Shown here one piece after another: positions 843-15,259 of a DNA stretch of 15,333 bases. This stretch comes from a virus. Its lineage: Duplodnaviria; Heunggongvirae; Uroviricota; Caudoviricetes. A program made the position numbers and the translations under genes. The stretch is from the IMG/VR virus record IMGVR_UViG_3300010283_000228, positions 1 through 15,333 of that record, one strand, 5' to 3'. The notes below the pieces were generated by a model. The model had not been told where the DNA came from. It saw only the letters and a list, made by a program, of their open reading frames with translations, and did no database searches. Within the stretch, counting starts at the first letter, position 1. Every line of letters begins with the position of its first letter.

Positions 843-2048
843 TCACATATTCGCCAATCGAATAAAACTCGGCATCCTTGGATCGGTGAACTTATACACG
901 CCTCTACCCAGTCTTTTTATTGTCGCTCCAAAATCCTTTTTAATTAAGCGTCCTGTATAGTTACTCATACTTTGGTTGTTATATCTCTCTCCAGTATCTT
1001 GATATATCTGGTTTATCCATTCTTTAACGCCAAACTCCTCATTTTTAAACTTTGACGCTGAATATAGAATTTTTTTGTACACATCTGTTTTAGATGAACG
1101 AACAGCATCCTCATACTCTCTTCTTAGCCTACCTTCAGCATTCTCAACTGATTTTTCAATTGATTTATGGAAGATTTCAGAATTAATAACTTTGCTTGAA
1201 TCAACAATGGCAGCCTCAGCAGCCTCCTTGCAAAGGAGGTGAGTAAAATATGGAAAGCCATTGCTTATATCAACTATTTGATTTTTAATTTCATCGTCAA
1301 ACCTTAGTCCTAATCCCTTTTCTCCCAGACTGATTATTTCTAACAGATGCTTTTCATCAACCCCTCCCAGACAAACCTCATGCAGGCATCTATTAACAGA
1401 TTCATGCCCTGCCGTAAGGCTTTTACCATCCTTAGAAATTCCCACAAGCAATACTTTCAATTTCGAATTAAAATCGCTCAACTGCTTTATAAACTCTGCA
1501 ACAGCTTTCTTTATATCGTCTTCTAATACATCAAACTCATCTATAACGAGAACCCCCTGAATTATTCCAATAGTCGCTGCTGCCTTTCGAGGAGTTATTT
1601 CATCTCGTTCTATAGTTATTTTTTCTTCATAACCCACGTTACCAGTAAAGAAACTAAAAAACTTTGCAGATAAGCCTGCCTTTATTACTTTCTCTTCCTT
1701 ATACTTTTCCGGGTTTTGTGAGATAAATATTGCACATTCAGAGACGATATCTTTAAATTTAGTGTTAGTATCACACTTCACATTAAAATACTCACCTAAA
1801 AGTACGTTGTATTGCCTGCCACCAATAACTGTAGCATTAGCTAATGAGCTCTTTCCGATTCCTCTATCACCATATATCATACAATGCCTACCAGGAACCG
1901 TTAAATTATCTAAAATACTTCTCACTTCAGTATCTCTCCCCTTTAAATACTCAGGATTAGATATAGGAGTTGAAGGAGTATAATATTTATTCACATCATC
2001 TTTTTTTGCAAATTCTTGTGCATACTCTGCAAAAATATTCACATACAT
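843..2048 (-). CDS. stand-alone P-loop NTPase (AAA+/AAA_16-like ATPase domain with uncharacterised C-terminal region), 401 aa
   Basis: Long ORF with a GGAG Shine-Dalgarno about 6 nt upstream of the ATG at 2048. Translation shows Walker A GDRGIGKSS preceded by an LKGRDTE motif typical of AAA_16-type NTPases, and Walker B VLVIDEFD. Visibly AT-rich compared with the island backbone. Flanked by its own upstream and downstream terminators. Confidence 0.85.
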   Translation of the reverse strand: MYVNIFAEYAQEFAKKDDVNKYYTPSTPISNPEYLKGRDTEVRSILDNLTVPGRHCMIYGDRGIGKSSLANATVIGGRQYNVLLGEYFNVKCDTNTKFKDIVSECAIFISQNPEKYKEEKVIKAGLSAKFFSFFTGNVGYEEKITIERDEITPRKAAATIGIIQGVLVIDEFDVLEDDIKKAVAEFIKQLSDFNSKLKVLLVGISKDGKSLTAGHESVNRCLHEVCLGGVDEKHLLEIISLGEKGLGLRFDDEIKNQIVDISNGFPYFTHLLCKEAAEAAIVDSSKVINSEIFHKSIEKSVENAEGRLRREYEDAVRSSKTDVYKKILYSASKFKNEEFGVKEWINQIYQDTGERYNNQSMSNYTGRLIKKDFGATIKRLGRGVYKFTDPRMPSFIRLANM

Positions 2049-2755: not shown

Positions 2756-3292
2756 TCATTGATGGTCTGATTTTTCCCATTCAGCCAGGGCGTTTAGCCC
2801 GGCTTCACTCCATGATTCCAGTTCATCGGGATAATCACCTGCAACATAGCAGAGTTCGCAACGTAGCATACGAATTGCCAGCCTGGCATTACCTCGCAAA
2901 TTGTATTTTTCAAAGTAATGCTGCCCTTCATCATCCTCAAGGCAGATAGCACCATCATCAAGAAAGAGCACTTCCCAGCCTAATTCCCCGGCTGCATACA
3001 GCACACGCTGCTGTATGTCATCGTCCGTTACTGGCGAAGGAATTTTACCGTCTCTGGCCTTAACTGCTTTCCAGAATTCGCCCCACGTCATTTCCAGCGT
3101 TCTTTCTGGCCACATTTCAGAAACGGTGTCTTTCCCTTGTGCCGGTGGGCTGTTCCGCTGCTCTGTCGCCTCCACATCAATTTTTTTGCCAGACATGATC
3201 ACTTCGCCTTTCTCGATCCAGTCGTAAACTGTCTGGCGGCTTACGCCTTTGTATTTGGCGTATTCGGCTTTACTCATCAACATGTAGCTCAC
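2756..3292 (-). CDS. winged-HTH DNA-binding protein with phage Nu1/small-terminase-like N-terminus, 178 aa (function uncertain: packaging-redirection or regulator)
   Basis: GAGGTG Shine-Dalgarno 6 nt upstream of the ATG at 3292. N-terminal KAEYAKYKGVSRQTVYDWIEKG aligns by eye with the lambda Nu1 HTH (KKQLADIFGASIRTIQNWQEQG) and also with the MerR/excisionase-type HTH. Acidic C-terminal half. Confidence 0.8.
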   Translation of the reverse strand: MSYMLMSKAEYAKYKGVSRQTVYDWIEKGEVIMSGKKIDVEATEQRNSPPAQGKDTVSEMWPERTLEMTWGEFWKAVKARDGKIPSPVTDDDIQQRVLYAAGELGWEVLFLDDGAICLEDDEGQHYFEKYNLRGNARLAIRMLRCELCYVAGDYPDELESWSEAGLNALAEWEKSDHQ

Positions 3293-3382
3293 CTCATGCG
3301 TATACGATAAAAAATAATTTCATGCGGAAAGGGAATGCGTTGTGGGTATGGAGGAAAGGGGCAATAACCGCCCCTTACTGAT

Positions 3383-3655
3383 TCAGTTGCGCCAGGATGG
3401 CTGGCTAAGCGTGGTTTTCATTACATCATTGACGACCTGTTTTACGATTTCTGTGTTGGCAGTCGTGCTTTCAACATCAACAAAGCCATAATCGCCAATT
3501 TCCACCGTCAGGGATTCCAGTTTCTTCCCTAGAGCATCAGGCAACTCTCCACTGAACCGGTGCTGAAGATTTTCCACCAGCAACGCCCTGAATGCCTCGC
3601 TGTTCTCTTTTTTCTGCCATAGCTGGCGTTTATCCACTCTGATATTTAATTTCAC
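3383..3655 (-). CDS. hypothetical protein, 90 aa, translationally coupled to the upstream 55-aa gene
   Basis: GTG start at 3655 overlaps the TGA stop of the upstream gene (GTGA), with GAGGTG about 5 nt upstream. Protein-like composition; no recognisable motif. Confidence 0.55.
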   Translation of the reverse strand: MKLNIRVDKRQLWQKKENSEAFRALLVENLQHRFSGELPDALGKKLESLTVEIGDYGFVDVESTTANTEIVKQVVNDVMKTTLSQPSWRN

Positions 3656-3819
3656 AGTCTCACCTCTTTAAGTGCCTTATCCATCAGTTGCCGGGCGATA
3701 ACATGAATCGACGGTGCCACACCAAGCACAGATTTCTGACGCTCTTCGTCCTGGATGCGTTGCAGGGCTTCGATCTGCCTCCGGGAAAGTAAAACTGGCT
3801 TTACTCCGTGATTTTTCAT
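3652..3819 (-). CDS. small putative DNA-binding protein, 55 aa (MKNHGVKPVLLSRRQIEALQRIQDEERQKSVLGVAPSIHVIARQLMDKALKEVRL)
   Basis: Internal ATG of the 107-aa track ORF, with AGAAGGGA Shine-Dalgarno 5 nt upstream. The N-terminal part of the track ORF is Cys/Asn-rich and runs through palindromic operator DNA, so it is judged non-coding. Perfect palindromes lie 20-70 bp upstream. Confidence 0.5.
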   Translation of the reverse strand: MKNHGVKPVLLSRRQIEALQRIQDEERQKSVLGVAPSIHVIARQLMDKALKEVRL

Positions 3820-3838
3820 GATGATCCCTTCTGAATGA

Positions 3839-3891
3839 CAATAATTGCAATTATTGCACAAATTGAAATGATACCAGAGACAATTGCAATA
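3839..3891. promoter_or_regulatory. operator-like palindromes upstream of the 55-aa/90-aa module
   Basis: Perfect 18-bp palindrome CAATAATTGCAATTATTG at 3839-3856 and a related AATTGCAATA at 3882-3891, just upstream of the Shine-Dalgarno of the 55-aa gene. Confidence 0.5.
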
Positions 3892-4097
3892 AATGAAACG
3901 AAAAGCATCAATAAACCAACCTTCGGCACTGAATGCTCTGATTTTTCTGCAAAGGTATGGCAGATGTTGGTGCATGCAAACATAAAGGCAATAGCAGAAG
4001 AAGCTGCGGGGAGTGAAAAGGGGAAGTTTTTATAAATACACGATTGTCGCCTCACTGCAGGTTAACAGCCACAAGCTCCATGATAATAACTTGTTAA

Positions 4098-4451: not shown

Positions 4452-4474
4452 AAAGCCCCTTACTAAGGGGCTTT
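4452..4474 (-). terminator. rho-independent terminator after the lipoprotein gene
   Basis: 10-bp perfect stem aaagcccctt (4452-4461) / aaggggcttt (4465-4474), followed on the minus-strand transcript by UAUAUAUU. Confidence 0.55.
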
Positions 4475-6960: not shown

Positions 6961-8766
6961 TTATGTTCTGTCGTTAATCCCTGTAGCTGCTGGCAACCAG
7001 CCATCAGCATCATCATCTAACAGAACATTTGTTATCACTCGCCCTTTATCCGGGCCTTTAGTGCATTTAGCCCGCTTATACTCCTTTCCGTATTCCGCCA
7101 TAGCTCCTGGCATATCAGTACCAAAGCGTGTCAGTGATACTGGTTTTCCCAGGCCATGCGCTGACATATAGGCTAAATAAGCATGATACAGGTATCGCCT
7201 CGGGCTAAATGGCACTATTTCCGCATTGCCCACCATCATTCCTTCACATTTAACCAACGACATCAGATAGCCGCAAAAGTCCACCAGTGAATCACCTTCG
7301 CGCTTTATCAACAGCGCTTCTTCTGATTTTTGCTGCTCATAAAGTAGTCTTTTAGCTTCGTCCTGGTCGGTAAATCGTGTTAGCAAATGGCGAATCACTA
7401 CCGCCAGTTCGCCTTCTATCTTTTCCGCCAGCATGGGATCGCGTTCGTTCTCCGGTACGACCTCAGAGAAATTAAATATCACCCTACGACGCGAGATCCC
7501 CCCGCTTCGGTCACTGAATGACATGGCGTTATTGTTTACCGCAAGCACTACTGCCGGAATACGTGTGGAGTAGGGGGCTTTATGTTTCGGATCAATTGCC
7601 ACCTTGTCGCCGCCAGTAATTGCCTTAATTCCTGCACCATCGCCAGCGTAGCGAGTCATATCCGGCATGATAATCAGCGAAAAGCCAACTACTAACGCGC
7701 GTTCCCTTGCGTCTTCCAGAGCCTTCATGCTTGCCGATACTGTGTTGGCCTTACCCGCCAGCATGGTACAAATCTCAGCCATCACACTTTTACCGCTTCC
7801 GCCTGGGCCTGTTACCTCAAGGAATAACTGCCAGTCGTACCGGTTCGCCAGCACCATGAATAATGCCGCCAGTACGCGATCAGCTTTACGATCATTATCT
7901 GCCACCGAACGACGCAGCCACTTCCAGAAATTCGGCGCATGTGTTGCCAGCGTTTCCCCCTCTGCTGGTGGGCTGAACGGTAATTCACTGGCATTTAACA
8001 ACCAGTCATTTTTGTTATGCTCCCGAAAATTTCCCGTCCGGGTATCAAATACCCCGTTACTGAATCCAATAAGATTCCTGTCTGCCCCGCCCATAACAGG
8101 CAGGCTCAATTTCATTGTGTCTACGGCAAATTTAATGGCGTTTTGCGAATAACTGATTCCAGCATCAATAAAAATCTTCGCCATAGACCGCTGGAGTTCC
8201 TTATCAGATACAGGCACCCAGACAATTCCGTTGTAATGGTGAACTACATCAGAATCATCATTTATAGCCAGTGCTCTTCCATAATATTCAAGTAACACTT
8301 CCCCTCTCTGGCTGGCTCCCATCTGATTTAGTGCTGGCCTGGATAGGTCAATATTTTTTGTGGCTAATTTCATCGCTGAAACTTCCCCACTCTCTGCCTG
8401 TTCGCGGATCCGTTGCAGGTAGTCGCGCCAGTTTTCCGGCTCCCGGTCGGTGATACCTTTGTATAATTTCGCGTCCTGTACACCAGCCAGCGCCAGCTTT
8501 TCAGCAATAGCATTGATCTGGATTGGCTCTATCTCCCCCGCGAGATAGACACGTGCAAAGCGGCGTTTCTCGTCAATAATGCGGATATTCGCCAGGTCTG
8601 CCAGTTGCTTTGGCCCCAGATAAACAGGTGGCACGTTATCGCCGTGTTTTCGTCCTTCGCTTTCAATCCAGTGTTGAGCATGGGCGTAAGCATCCGTCCC
8701 GGCAAAAATGATTACCTCGGTGAATTTATCCTTCGGCTGATATTTTAAATTCGGTGCGTTTTTCAC
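6961..8766 (-). CDS. P4 alpha-like phage/plasmid primase-helicase (replication initiator), 601 aa
   Basis: Walker A GPGGSGKS in the C-terminal half. Overall resemblance to P4-family primase C-terminal regions is from memory of that family. GTG start at 8766 overlaps the upstream TGA, with GGGGAGG about 8 nt upstream. Confidence 0.88.
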   Translation of the reverse strand: MKNAPNLKYQPKDKFTEVIIFAGTDAYAHAQHWIESEGRKHGDNVPPVYLGPKQLADLANIRIIDEKRRFARVYLAGEIEPIQINAIAEKLALAGVQDAKLYKGITDREPENWRDYLQRIREQAESGEVSAMKLATKNIDLSRPALNQMGASQRGEVLLEYYGRALAINDDSDVVHHYNGIVWVPVSDKELQRSMAKIFIDAGISYSQNAIKFAVDTMKLSLPVMGGADRNLIGFSNGVFDTRTGNFREHNKNDWLLNASELPFSPPAEGETLATHAPNFWKWLRRSVADNDRKADRVLAALFMVLANRYDWQLFLEVTGPGGSGKSVMAEICTMLAGKANTVSASMKALEDARERALVVGFSLIIMPDMTRYAGDGAGIKAITGGDKVAIDPKHKAPYSTRIPAVVLAVNNNAMSFSDRSGGISRRRVIFNFSEVVPENERDPMLAEKIEGELAVVIRHLLTRFTDQDEAKRLLYEQQKSEEALLIKREGDSLVDFCGYLMSLVKCEGMMVGNAEIVPFSPRRYLYHAYLAYMSAHGLGKPVSLTRFGTDMPGAMAEYGKEYKRAKCTKGPDKGRVITNVLLDDDADGWLPAATGINDRT

Positions 8767-12534: not shown

Positions 12535-12732
12535 TCAGGTAGCTGTTCCGCGTGATTCCGCAATACGCTGATTAATCCACTCGTCAATTTCACTCTCAAC
12601 GAAAGCAATAGCTCGCGAGCCAATTTTAACTGATGCAGGAAATTTACCTTGCCCCATAAGGCGATAAATCCATGCCTTGCTATATCCAGTTCTACGCTGA
12701 ACTTCCGTTAAACGAATAAGAGAGTTTGCCAT
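12535..12732 (-). CDS. alpA: AlpA-family prophage transcriptional regulator, 65 aa
   Basis: MANSLIRLTEVQRRTGYSKAWIYRLMGQGKFPASVKIGSRAIAFVESEIDEWI is the characteristic AlpA-type HTH. AAGGTGA 4 nt upstream of the ATG. Confidence 0.85.
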   Translation of the reverse strand: MANSLIRLTEVQRRTGYSKAWIYRLMGQGKFPASVKIGSRAIAFVESEIDEWINQRIAESRGTAT

Positions 12733-13704: not shown

Positions 13705-13802
13705 ATTCTCCCCCTTCAAGCGGTCTAATGTTAAGGCCGAGCCAGCTCTGTTTGCATCAGCCTTTTTAGGTGCTCAAAGTCTACTACTGTATACTCAACC
13801 AG

Positions 13803-15017
13803 TCACCCGCATTTTCCGAACTCACCATGCACCACATTTCCGCCATGCTCGAGCGAATCCATATAGTCGGCATACCACTGGAGCATCTCCCGGCGACCAT
13901 CCAGATATTGCGCATGGTTGTATGTGCCACGAATTGAGTTTTTATCGACGTGTGCGAGCTGTGTCTCTATCCACGCGGTGTTATAGCCCTGCTCATGCAA
14001 AATGGTGCTCATGGTGTGCCGGAATCCATGACCAGTAACCTTTCCGTTATAGCCGATGCGTTTAAATACTTGGTTTATGCTAGCCTCGCTCATTGTTTTC
14101 CTTGGATCATTACGGCCGGGAAACATAAGCGGATAATTGCCAGTTAATTCTTTAATCTGCCCAATAAGCGAAAGAGCCTGCTTAGACAAAGGCACCACAT
14201 GAGGGCGACGCATTTTCATCCGTGAAGCAGGTATCTCCCAGATAGCCTTGTTGAGATCGATTTCATCCCATAATGCACCGCGCAGTTCGCCAGTCCGCAA
14301 ACCGGTGATAATCAGTAGACGAGCCGCCATAACAACCAATGCACTTCCTGAGTAACTGGACAATGCCTTGAAAAAATCAGGTAATTCTTTGGCTGTGAGG
14401 AAAGGATAATGATTAGATTCATGACCTTGCATCGCGCTGGTGAGATCCGGTGCAGGGTTATACTCAGCACGTCCAGTGACAATTGCATAGCGGAAAACCT
14501 CCCCGCATCGCTGCCTCACTTTTTTGGCTTTTTCGGTAGCACCGCGCCCCTCGATGCGCCGCAGCACATTCAGCAGTTCAAGTGGTTTGATTTCGGCGAT
14601 TGGTTTTTTGCCAATGTAAGGGAACACATCTTTGTTGAAGGCTTCGAGGATGTCTGAAGCATAACCAGCAGACCATTTTTTTAATTTGCTGCTGTGCCAC
14701 TCAAGGGCAATATCTTTGAAGGTGTTGTTTAACTGCGTTTCCCGGGCAATCTTTTCCTCTCGTTTCGCTTCCATCGGATCGATACCCCCAGCGATACCCC
14801 TTTTAGCTTCTTCACGTTTTGCACGAGCATCAGCCAAGGTAACTTCAGGATACACACCTAGTGCTAACAGCTTCTCTTTACCAGCTACACGATACTTGAA
14901 GCGCCAATATTTTCCTCCACTAGGTTTTACCAAGAGATACAGACCGCCACCATCAGCCAGCTTGTAAGCCTTCTCTTTTGGCTTGGCAGTGTCTATTTGA
15001 CGGGCATTGAGTTTCAC
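13803..15017 (-). CDS. int: P4-family tyrosine integrase, 404 aa
   Basis: N-terminus KPKEKAYKLADGGGLYLLVKPSGGKYWRFKYR is the hallmark of P4-type integrases. Catalytic-region motifs TGLRTGELRG, HGFRHT and RGTYNHAQY are present. GTG start with GGAGG 9 nt upstream. Located 166 bp from the 3' end of the tRNA. Confidence 0.9.
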   Translation of the reverse strand: MKLNARQIDTAKPKEKAYKLADGGGLYLLVKPSGGKYWRFKYRVAGKEKLLALGVYPEVTLADARAKREEAKRGIAGGIDPMEAKREEKIARETQLNNTFKDIALEWHSSKLKKWSAGYASDILEAFNKDVFPYIGKKPIAEIKPLELLNVLRRIEGRGATEKAKKVRQRCGEVFRYAIVTGRAEYNPAPDLTSAMQGHESNHYPFLTAKELPDFFKALSSYSGSALVVMAARLLIITGLRTGELRGALWDEIDLNKAIWEIPASRMKMRRPHVVPLSKQALSLIGQIKELTGNYPLMFPGRNDPRKTMSEASINQVFKRIGYNGKVTGHGFRHTMSTILHEQGYNTAWIETQLAHVDKNSIRGTYNHAQYLDGRREMLQWYADYMDSLEHGGNVVHGEFGKCG

Positions 15018-15183: not shown

Positions 15184-15259
15184 TGGTGCCGATAAGAGGA
15201 GTCGAACCTCCGACCTTCGCATTACGAATGCGCTGCTCTACCAACTGAGCTATATCGGC
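15184..15259 (-). tRNA. thrW: tRNA-Thr (anticodon CGU)
   Basis: Reverse complement reads GCCGATATAGCTCAGTTGGTAGAGCAGCGCATTCGTAATGCGAAGGTCGGAGGTTCGACTCCTCTTATCGGCACCA: 7-bp acceptor stem, D arm, anticodon loop TTCGTAA (anticodon CGT), T arm GGAGG/TTCGACT/CCTCT, 3' CCA. The thrW symbol is assigned because CGU is the thrW anticodon in E. coli. Confidence 0.9.

Follow-up and report, generated by a model that had tools for sequence, protein, structure and literature searches.

Background

In phage P22 the first gene of the ant operon encodes Arc, which limits that operon. In the LexA operons of phages 186, Fels-2/PSP3 and Gifsy, a small regulator or antirepressor gene is found together with a dinI homologue (PMC3121763). 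Satellites of the Gram-negative phage-inducible chromosomal island (PICI) type are described, in passages of PMC10111431, as following a four-zone plan made up of an integration zone, a Bro zone, one for replication and a late zone that is dynamic and captures late genes of helper phages, and EcCIMP1, which has been mobilised experimentally, occupies the same chromosomal position as the satellite analysed here (PMC11773190). Our subject is a pair of small genes, encoding 55 and 90 amino acids (aa), in the IMG/VR virus record IMGVR_UViG_3300010283_000228; the whole stretch of 15,333 nucleotides (nt) that was analysed is called the window. The pair had been read as a type II toxin-antitoxin-like module or a small regulatory switch behind palindromic operators (the original prediction). 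The explanation that we find best, and hold with moderate confidence, is that it forms the head of the late-zone operon of a phage satellite, in which a regulated promoter is followed by a putative DNA-binding leader gene and by a DinI/Tum-like cargo gene.

The gene pair and its satellite

The window is a Gram-negative PICI-type phage satellite inserted at a tRNA-Thr gene (thrW; tRNA at 15184-15259). We counted as PICI-type those islands of about 10-15 kb that carry an integrase, an AlpA-type regulator and a primase or replicase at a tRNA site, and here an integrase, an AlpA-type regulator and a primase were found at the tRNA without a full set of virion genes. All satellite genes lie on the minus strand, in the order integrase, 243-aa gene, AlpA-like regulator, AntA/AntB, Icd-like genes, primase, ProQ/FinO and PerC, and then a lipoprotein-like gene, a membrane-protein gene, the 55-aa/90-aa pair, a 178-aa helix-turn-helix (HTH) protein, a 59-aa open reading frame (ORF) and a variable hotspot. 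Since this order matches the four-zone plan, the pair is the first transcription unit of the late zone, and its placement in the late zone of a satellite is close to certain. An Rfam scan of the whole window returned the tRNA-Thr only. The pair and its immediate surroundings comprise:

3883-3898, minus strand: distal promoter box TTTCATTTATTGCAAT, an exact match to TTTCA-N5-TGCAAT, which holds the palindromic core ATTGCAAT (3883-3890)
3853-3868, minus strand: proximal promoter box TTTCAATTTGTGCAAT, exactly 30 bp downstream of the distal box
3839-3856, no strand: perfect 18-bp palindrome CAATAATTGCAATTATTG with two 9-bp arms, the longest in the window and the only one of that length
3838-3843, minus strand: inferred -10-like hexamer TATTGT, which aligns with the TATAAT of relatives once a 9-bp insertion is removed
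3652-3819, minus strand: 55-aa leader gene, with an ATG start and the Shine-Dalgarno sequence AAGGGA 5 nt upstream
3383-3655, minus strand: 90-aa gene, with a GTG start and GAGGTGA upstream, translationally coupled to the leader via GTGA; its product probably has a divergent DinI/Tum-like fold
3356-3376, minus strand: GC-rich hairpin with an 8-bp stem, just past the stop codon of the 90-aa gene, present in the minimum free energy structure and lacking a proper U tract

The start/stop overlap reported for the two genes was confirmed by direct reading of the sequence and by the ORF list: the reading frames share the four bases GTGA (3652-3655). In comparison with a 96.8% identical allele, the 90-aa gene has four synonymous changes and one non-synonymous change, and the 55-aa gene three of each; other genera hold homologues of both proteins. 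Judging from these sequence comparisons both are genuine coding genes, which RefSeq labels as hypothetical proteins. The 71-nt segment that contains the hairpin at 3356-3376 is not unusually stable (z -0.65). A different inverted repeat occupies the same position after the 90-aa gene in a Serratia locus (L057; by eye, not folded), and inverted repeats at this place in both islands suggest that transcripts are partly terminated, or stabilised, before the 178-aa gene. The hairpin is possibly a weak terminator or a transcript-end stabiliser between the pair and that gene.

The leader family and its exchangeable cargo

Relatives of the 55-aa protein, hereafter the leader, were sought among 5.8 billion proteins (29 clusters) and by an exhaustive profile search (57 representatives), and their surroundings were compared in 14 loci from about 12 Enterobacterales genera, in E. 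coli genomes and in contigs with distant members (L numbers denote loci). The 57 representatives are 31-189 aa long, save one repetitive protein of 1,154 aa, and none of them has a significant annotated domain. In every locus with enough flank the leader comes first among the late-zone genes and heads a co-oriented operon, and upstream of it lies a satellite primase, PerC or an accessory gene, followed by a terminator. A tblastn search of 50,697 phage records gave no leader homologue, and the relatives that tblastn found in "plasmids" of 12-22 kb are in circular satellites, which makes the family, as far as sequence searches tell, satellite-specific. It is strongly conserved across Escherichia, Pantoea, Erwinia and Serratia. 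We found no paper that names the 55-aa family, the two-box promoter described below or the RefSeq protein accessions.

The "plasmids" in question are filed in PLSDB as "non-mobilizable plasmids" of 12-22 kb, among them NZ_CP148430.1 (L056, 12,152 bp, E. coli). They are circular satellites of this family and carry the integrase, AntA/B, the primase, the leader gene and PerC.

Islands differ in the gene that comes next after the leader and usually overlaps the leader stop codon by 4 or 1 nt:

Window, L003 and L005: 90-aa gene
L002 and L004: phrog_6216 and DUF2213/protease-like genes
L006 and L007: HEAGH metalloprotease-like protein
L008 and L015: baseplate hub
L009-L012, L014 and L016-L018: 108-aa protein and tape measure protein
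L013: 70-aa ORF, then a T7 gp14-like internal virion protein
L053 and L054: tail fibre assembly, tail chaperone, tape measure or Dit genes

The leader family thus fronts at least six unrelated gene types. The 90-aa family (9 clusters) was found, in every context recovered and including Serratia, directly behind the leader and with the same 4-nt overlap; in one locus the 90-aa gene is followed by the 108-aa and tape-measure cargo.

Virion-type genes stand right behind the leader in L009-L018, L008/L015, L013, L053, L054 and L059. They encode tape measure proteins (850-1136 aa), baseplate hub and spike, distal tail and tail chaperone proteins and the T7 gp14-like protein, and we read them as captured late cargo of helper phages, placed under the same two-box promoter.

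A conserved two-box promoter

The 110 bp upstream of the leader were aligned for 16 loci from about 12 genera. Both 16-bp boxes follow the consensus TTTCA-N5-TGCAAT, with a palindromic core (A)TTGCAA(T), and their 30-bp register is kept without insertions or deletions in 16/16 loci; mean column identity is 78-79% in the boxes, as compared with 54-58% in the spacer and flank. TATAAT or a near-TATAAT follows immediately on the proximal box in most genera (identity in the -10 columns is 89%), and no recognisable -35 element was seen in the leader promoter of any relative in this alignment. Close upstream of the boxes there is usually a rho-independent terminator, which belongs to the preceding gene.

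Directly after the -10, the exact LexA core CTGT-N8-ACAG is present in five loci (L012, L014, L056, L057 and L058), 15-30 nt upstream of the leader ATG, and five more (L006, L007, L008, L010 and L053) match seven of the eight core positions at that place in the promoter. On control promoters, those of phage 186 tum and of phage dinI genes, this pattern also picks out the LexA sites that are annotated there. The E. coli circular satellite L056 (NZ_CP148430.1) has the full canonical promoter, i.e. terminator, two boxes, TATAAT and an exact LexA box, and in the two Serratia loci, L057 and L058, an orthologous pair of leader and DinI-like genes stands behind an exact LexA box. The late-zone promoter of this group of satellites appears to reach from its distal box as far as the Shine-Dalgarno sequence, and in many members it is probably an SOS (LexA) promoter.

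The boxes are not coding sequence, since they are read in different frames between islands and the ORFs that cover them gather non-synonymous changes and stops. A plus-strand 66-aa ORF that spans the promoter and the palindrome (3835-4035; RefSeq WP_000152392.1) was considered as a real gene and rejected: its changes between close alleles are almost all non-synonymous, it has a stop in L020, and it is absent where islands lack the upstream insert, all of which mark it as a probably spurious call. Two minus-strand ORFs over the promoter, of 79 aa (3816-4055) and 107 aa, were set aside likewise, with mostly non-synonymous changes and with stops in close relatives; the 79-aa ORF has a stop in L005 and is probably also spurious.

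Other possible sites were noted along the way. No P2 Ogr/Delta-type activator site (TGT-N12-ACA) was seen by eye in the promoter sequence of the window. A GATC-containing repeat, cGATCaAAACGATCAAAt, lies about 60-80 nt upstream of the leader ATG, before the distal box, in L009, L011, L014 and L016-L018; it is conserved in the Pantoea, Erwinia and Chimaeribacter group, does not occur in the window, and could represent Dam or SeqA sites or the sites of another factor. At 13785-13804 of the window, between the integrase stop codon and the 243-aa/AlpA-like genes, TACTGTATACTCAACCAGTC matches seven of the eight LexA core positions, which hints that the early region of the satellite may also be under SOS control.

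The 18-bp palindrome

The perfect 18-bp palindrome upstream of the pair can be read straight from the sequence, as originally reported. In dinucleotide-preserving shuffles, arms of at least 9 bp arose in 7% of shuffles of the whole window and in 0.2% of shuffles of the 278-bp intergenic gap. The related second palindrome that had been proposed at 3882-3891, which reads TATTGCAATT on the minus strand, fails as a perfect 10-mer, but its 8-bp core ATTGCAAT (3883-3890) is indeed palindromic and related to the longer one: this octamer has only two copies in the 15.3-kb window, one at 3883-3890 and the other at 3844-3851, the centre of the 18-bp palindrome.

Three pieces make up the longer palindrome: a 9-bp insertion, AATTGCAAT, is flanked by the final 4 nt of the proximal box and by the first bases of the -10-like TATTGT. 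In the window and in close alleles this insertion fills the -10 position after the proximal box, and deleting it restores TGCAAT-TATTGT-CA, which the upstream alignment shows to be co-linear with the TGCAAT-TATAAT-CA of the family. The perfect palindrome results from a third ATTGCAAT core that the insertion supplies, 9 bp away from the proximal core. Relatives have TATAAT where the window has the palindrome, which was not found in L003, L021 and L022 despite their 98% identical leader and identical 90-aa proteins, and is also missing from L002, L004 and L023. The copy number of the 9-bp unit varies as well: metagenomic locus L052 has an additional CAATAATTG, L047 carries a variant, and in L020 (E. 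coli SCU-316, NZ_CP054371.1) a 39-bp deletion between two copies of ATTGCAATT (window 3843-3881) has removed the proximal box.

We also considered the palindrome as an operator shared with helper phages and rejected this, as its 20 exact matches in IMG/VR are 14 instances of this satellite and six unrelated, AT-rich chance contexts. Because it is absent from sister islands with near-identical genes, its unit is unstable, and its copies in IMG/VR belong to this satellite or are unrelated, we take the palindrome to be a lineage-specific elaboration of the box core, real and in an operator-like position, and not the operator of the family.

The two proteins

An AlphaFold2 model of the 90-aa protein, built from 8 sequences and with a predicted local distance difference test (pLDDT) score of 74, has the order beta-alpha-beta-beta-alpha, with a three-stranded sheet packed on two helices, as in the fold of the DinI family. 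A DinI/Tum profile, built from E. coli DinI orthologues and from phage DinI and Tum sequences, was compared with the 90-aa family. By hhalign, residues 1-90 of the 90-aa family align with positions 1-77 of this profile (E 0.0019, probability 14%), and the corresponding hidden Markov model gives the window protein 9.0 bits, a score reached by 36 of 20,000 shuffles (empirical P 0.0018). The N-terminal MKLNIRVDKRQ and the C-terminal SWR of the protein also echo VKVNITLDKDQ and ESWR of Tum95.5. Taken together, these observations suggest that the 90-aa protein is probably a divergent member of the DinI/Tum fold; homology to a non-toxin phage regulator, which the original prediction had named as contrary to a toxin-antitoxin role, is thereby found in substance. 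A sequence-profile search of the PDB with the 90-aa family gave nothing significant, tblastn of the 90-aa protein against phage records gave no relevant match, and Pfam, PHROGs, NCBIfam and PADLOC searches with both proteins of the pair returned only a weak match of the 90-aa protein to a PHROG of unknown function.

In the AlphaFold2 monomer of the leader (pLDDT 81), an extended or coiled stretch (residues 1-12) precedes two helices, at 13-29 and 38-54. The protein is basic, with a net charge of about +5 as counted from the sequence, and its family shares the motif VKPVLL-x3-Q-x3-L-x2-IQ-x-ER-x2-S-x2-G-x-APSIH-x-IAR-x-L-x-KAL. In the model this layout resembles that of ribbon-helix-helix (RHH) proteins, with a strand, helix A, a G-x-x-P-S/T turn and helix B. 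What suggests DNA binding by the leader is that it is linked in cis to the boxes throughout and does not depend on the cargo, together with its size and charge; that it is a DNA-binding autoregulator is a tentative view, to which we give a little less than an even chance.

Proposed mechanism and alternatives

Under the late-zone operon reading, the conserved two-box promoter, with its boxes exactly three helical turns apart, would drive the leader gene. The leader would be a small basic dimeric DNA-binding protein of Arc/RHH-like layout, which, as a small oligomer, may occupy the phased ATTGCAAT boxes and feed back on its own operon. The gene behind it would be an exchangeable cargo for dealing with the helper phage, represented in the window by the DinI/Tum-like 90-aa protein, translated by coupling to the leader; this protein would likely bind RecA filaments or a phage repressor, and would tune the SOS response or helper-prophage induction instead of poisoning the cell. 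As the palindrome lies where relatives have TATAAT and a LexA box, control in the window is probably no longer LexA-dependent. The replacement of those two elements by the palindrome in this E. coli lineage would have shifted control, probably, to whatever recognises ATTGCAAT. The switch part of the original prediction is thus plausible, with the difference that the operators would be the two 16-bp boxes and not the 18-bp palindrome. A bolder and doubtful version is that the leader founds a new satellite-restricted family of DNA-binding proteins and acts as master switch of the late zone, reading the two phased ATTGCAAT boxes with LexA or, in the E. coli lineage, instead of LexA, with a DinI/Tum-like partner that manipulates RecA- or repressor-dependent induction of helper prophages. 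If true, this would be a satellite-encoded SOS or antirepressor circuit without a described counterpart in Gram-negative PICIs.

Several observations weigh against the late-zone operon reading as set out above. The link of the 90-aa protein to DinI consists of a pLDDT-74 model from 8 sequences and a weak profile score; Pfam DinI (PF06183) does not match the protein at E<=1, and a Foldseek search of the model against viral models gave unnamed small phage proteins (E>=1.7e-3) and no named DinI. About 12 residues are inserted after helix 1 relative to E. coli DinI. The C-terminal helix is neutral, where that of DinI is acidic: residues 66-90 (ANTEIVKQVVNDVMKTTLSQPSWRN) have two acidic and two basic residues within the modelled helix 68-84, whereas DinI has 6-7 acidic residues there. 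The acidic helix of DinI is reportedly a mimic of DNA on RecA. As for the leader, Pfam scans of 24 and of 31 members gave no RHH or other match, profile searches of the PDB with the family gave nothing significant and no link to RHH, and Foldseek of the model against the PDB gave no match with E<0.9, only non-significant homeodomain-like ones; its N-terminal VKPVLL is more hydrophobic than typical RHH reading strands, and the loop between helices A and B has 8 residues. A strict sigma-70 scan yields no canonical -10/-35 in the window promoter, where there is also no LexA box, the best nearby site matching five of the eight core positions. Finally, the protein that binds the boxes may possibly be another one, such as AlpA, the PerC-like protein, the 178-aa HTH protein, or a factor of the host or helper.

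Under the toxin-antitoxin reading the 90-aa protein would be a toxin whose family is new, with the 55-aa protein as its DNA-binding antitoxin and the palindromes as operators for autorepression. This reading accounts for two small genes with a 4-nt overlap, a basic first product and a palindrome upstream, and it agrees with the 90-aa gene always being accompanied by a leader, which is also found without the 90-aa gene. Nevertheless, the 90-aa model is DinI-like and has no toxin fold (RelE/ParE, MazF, HicA, VapC or Doc), and in other islands non-toxin genes, tape measure and baseplate genes among them, stand behind the leader, which is not how a member of a dedicated pair behaves. No toxin, antitoxin or defence model in Pfam, NCBIfam, PHROGs or PADLOC matches either protein, in keeping with the earlier remark that neither has an obvious RelE/ParE/MazF-like pattern. 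Islands with the same two genes lack the palindrome, and in the SCU-316 allele (L020) the leader carries a stop codon at Q20 (window 3762) while the 90-aa gene is intact, a point weakened by the 39-bp promoter deletion, which may silence both genes. Taking together the DinI/Tum-like model, the exchangeable partners, the leader-null allele, the absence of family matches and a palindrome that is not shared, we consider a type II system very improbable and are highly confident that this pair is not a toxin-antitoxin module.

Two other explanations give the leader a different task. It might be the antirepressor of a cassette resembling a split Tum and would then bind and inactivate a resident helper prophage's immunity repressor, in the way that P4 epsilon acts on the P2 C repressor and the upstream half of Tum acts in PSP3/Fels-2, with the 90-aa protein as an accessory and the boxes bound by some other factor. 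The Serratia orthologous pair behind an exact LexA box is reminiscent of the tum and Gifsy dinI operons, and the 90-aa family has so far been seen only directly behind the leader gene; the order of a small ORF and then a DinI-like ORF is that of PSP3/Fels-2, where the upstream gene is an antirepressor (PMC3121763; SEN8 locus). Still, hhalign comparisons of the leader family with the N-half of Tum and with the 62-aa protein of SEN8 detected no similarity (E 0.15 and 0.44, respectively), and we rejected the idea that the leader and Tum's antirepressor half are homologous. Moreover, the leader is conserved from Escherichia to Pantoea, Erwinia and Serratia, whereas phage repressors, its supposed targets, diverge fast, and it mostly stands without a DinI-like partner, before virion-type cargo; we regard this explanation as quite unlikely. 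The leader might also be an adaptor, chaperone or modulator that does not bind DNA and is needed for any late cargo, acting for example on RNA polymerase, LexA/RecA or a late activator of the helper, with the boxes serving a factor of the satellite, host or helper. That the leader matches no DNA-binding family and has a hydrophobic N-terminus fits such a role, and the lack of a -35 in any relative suggests dependence on an activator, which need not be the leader. On the other hand, no gene but the leader is linked to the boxes in cis in every case, several loci have no PerC-like gene within 4 kb upstream, and the protein is basic, with a helix-B motif (G-x-A-P-S/T-I-H-x-I-A-R) that, in our own reading, resembles the turn and helix B of RHH proteins. 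We consider the adaptor role unlikely, and retain the late-zone operon head, with a putative DNA-binding leader, as the best explanation.

Other features of the island

The remaining features to which we refer are:

13803-15017, minus strand: integrase
12535-12732, minus strand: AlpA-like regulator
6961-8766, minus strand: primase
2756-3292, minus strand: 175-178-aa late-zone protein with an N-terminal HTH like that of excisionases or terminase small subunits (HTH_17, E 1.3e-4; phrog_57, E 1.7e-6)

Homologues of the 178-aa protein occur in L003-L006 and L057 (E. coli, Rouxiella and Serratia), downstream of the variable cargo, where the variable late segment ends. It was compared with solved structures as a possible sequence homologue of the packaging-redirection protein Rpp and matched none of them; it is a candidate packaging-redirection (Rpp-like) factor.

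After the 178-aa and 59-aa genes comes a variable hotspot (843-2048, minus strand), which in the window encodes an nSTAND-type ATPase (phrog_6841, PF20703). Equivalent segments are present in L001, L003, L005, L023 and L057, and their contents include AAA and DUF4435 genes (PARIS-like) in 55989, DUF4747 and a partner in DE17, SIR2 in 258E, and AAA with an S8 peptidase in Serratia. This segment looks like a defence-gene hotspot of the satellites.

Between PerC and the leader promoter, the minus-strand segment 4098-5628 holds two genes, one for a lipoprotein-like product of 380 aa and one for a membrane protein of 107 aa, with a terminator-like hairpin (4452-4474) between them, after the 380-aa gene. 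Islands of the E. coli DE17 type are without these two genes and have the leader promoter directly behind the PerC terminator, and the Rouxiella island L006 carries a homologue of the 107-aa protein. The segment gives the impression of an accessory (moron-like) block that was inserted.

Comparison with known systems

How the late zone of Gram-negative PICI satellites is switched on is poorly understood, and this zone holds captured virion, packaging and interference genes. A two-box promoter that appears to be LexA-controlled in several genera, together with a universal 55-aa leader, offers a compact handle on its regulation, and the DinI/Tum-like cargo suggests that some satellites interfere with the SOS or repressor signalling of their helpers. 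For annotation, a tempting toxin-antitoxin call can be removed, and a probably spurious RefSeq ORF in the promoter is flagged.

The island of the window has the same plan and the same dynamic late zone as the Gram-negative PICIs described in passages of Tommasini, Mageeney and Williams 2023 (PMC10111431); in contrast to what is seen here, those passages describe no conserved leader gene or promoter of the late zone. Compared with E. coli DinI (PF06183; PDB 1ghh, 7ywa), the 90-aa protein has about 18% identity and is net neutral, with a C-terminal helix that is not acidic, whereas the corresponding DinI helix is strongly acidic.

By analogy, the closest parallels lie in two kinds of phage operon. 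As in the immI arc-ant operon of P22, a basic protein of about 53-55 aa is encoded first in the operon that it is proposed to limit, the symmetry of the presumed operator overlaps the promoter, and the downstream gene would act on prophage induction and not on the cell. In contrast to Arc and other RHH proteins, the leader has no detectable sequence or fold relation to them; two 16-bp boxes 30 bp apart take the place of a single 21-bp operator, and the downstream gene is DinI-like instead of Ant. With Tum of phage 186, the split genes of Fels-2/PSP3 and the Gifsy operons, the locus shares a small ORF and a DinI-fold ORF in a short operon of a temperate element, and relatives, including the Serratia orthologue, have a LexA box in the promoter. 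It differs from them in that the leader is unrelated to the N-half of Tum, no LexA box is present in the window copy, the carrier is a satellite where Tum-type systems are hosted by phages, and the leader also heads operons without a DinI-like gene. The pairing of a small regulator with a DinI homologue would thus be extended from temperate phages to satellites, and the module may be viewed as an operon head that is Arc-ant-like or split-Tum-like and is carried by a PICI satellite, built around an uncharacterised leader family.

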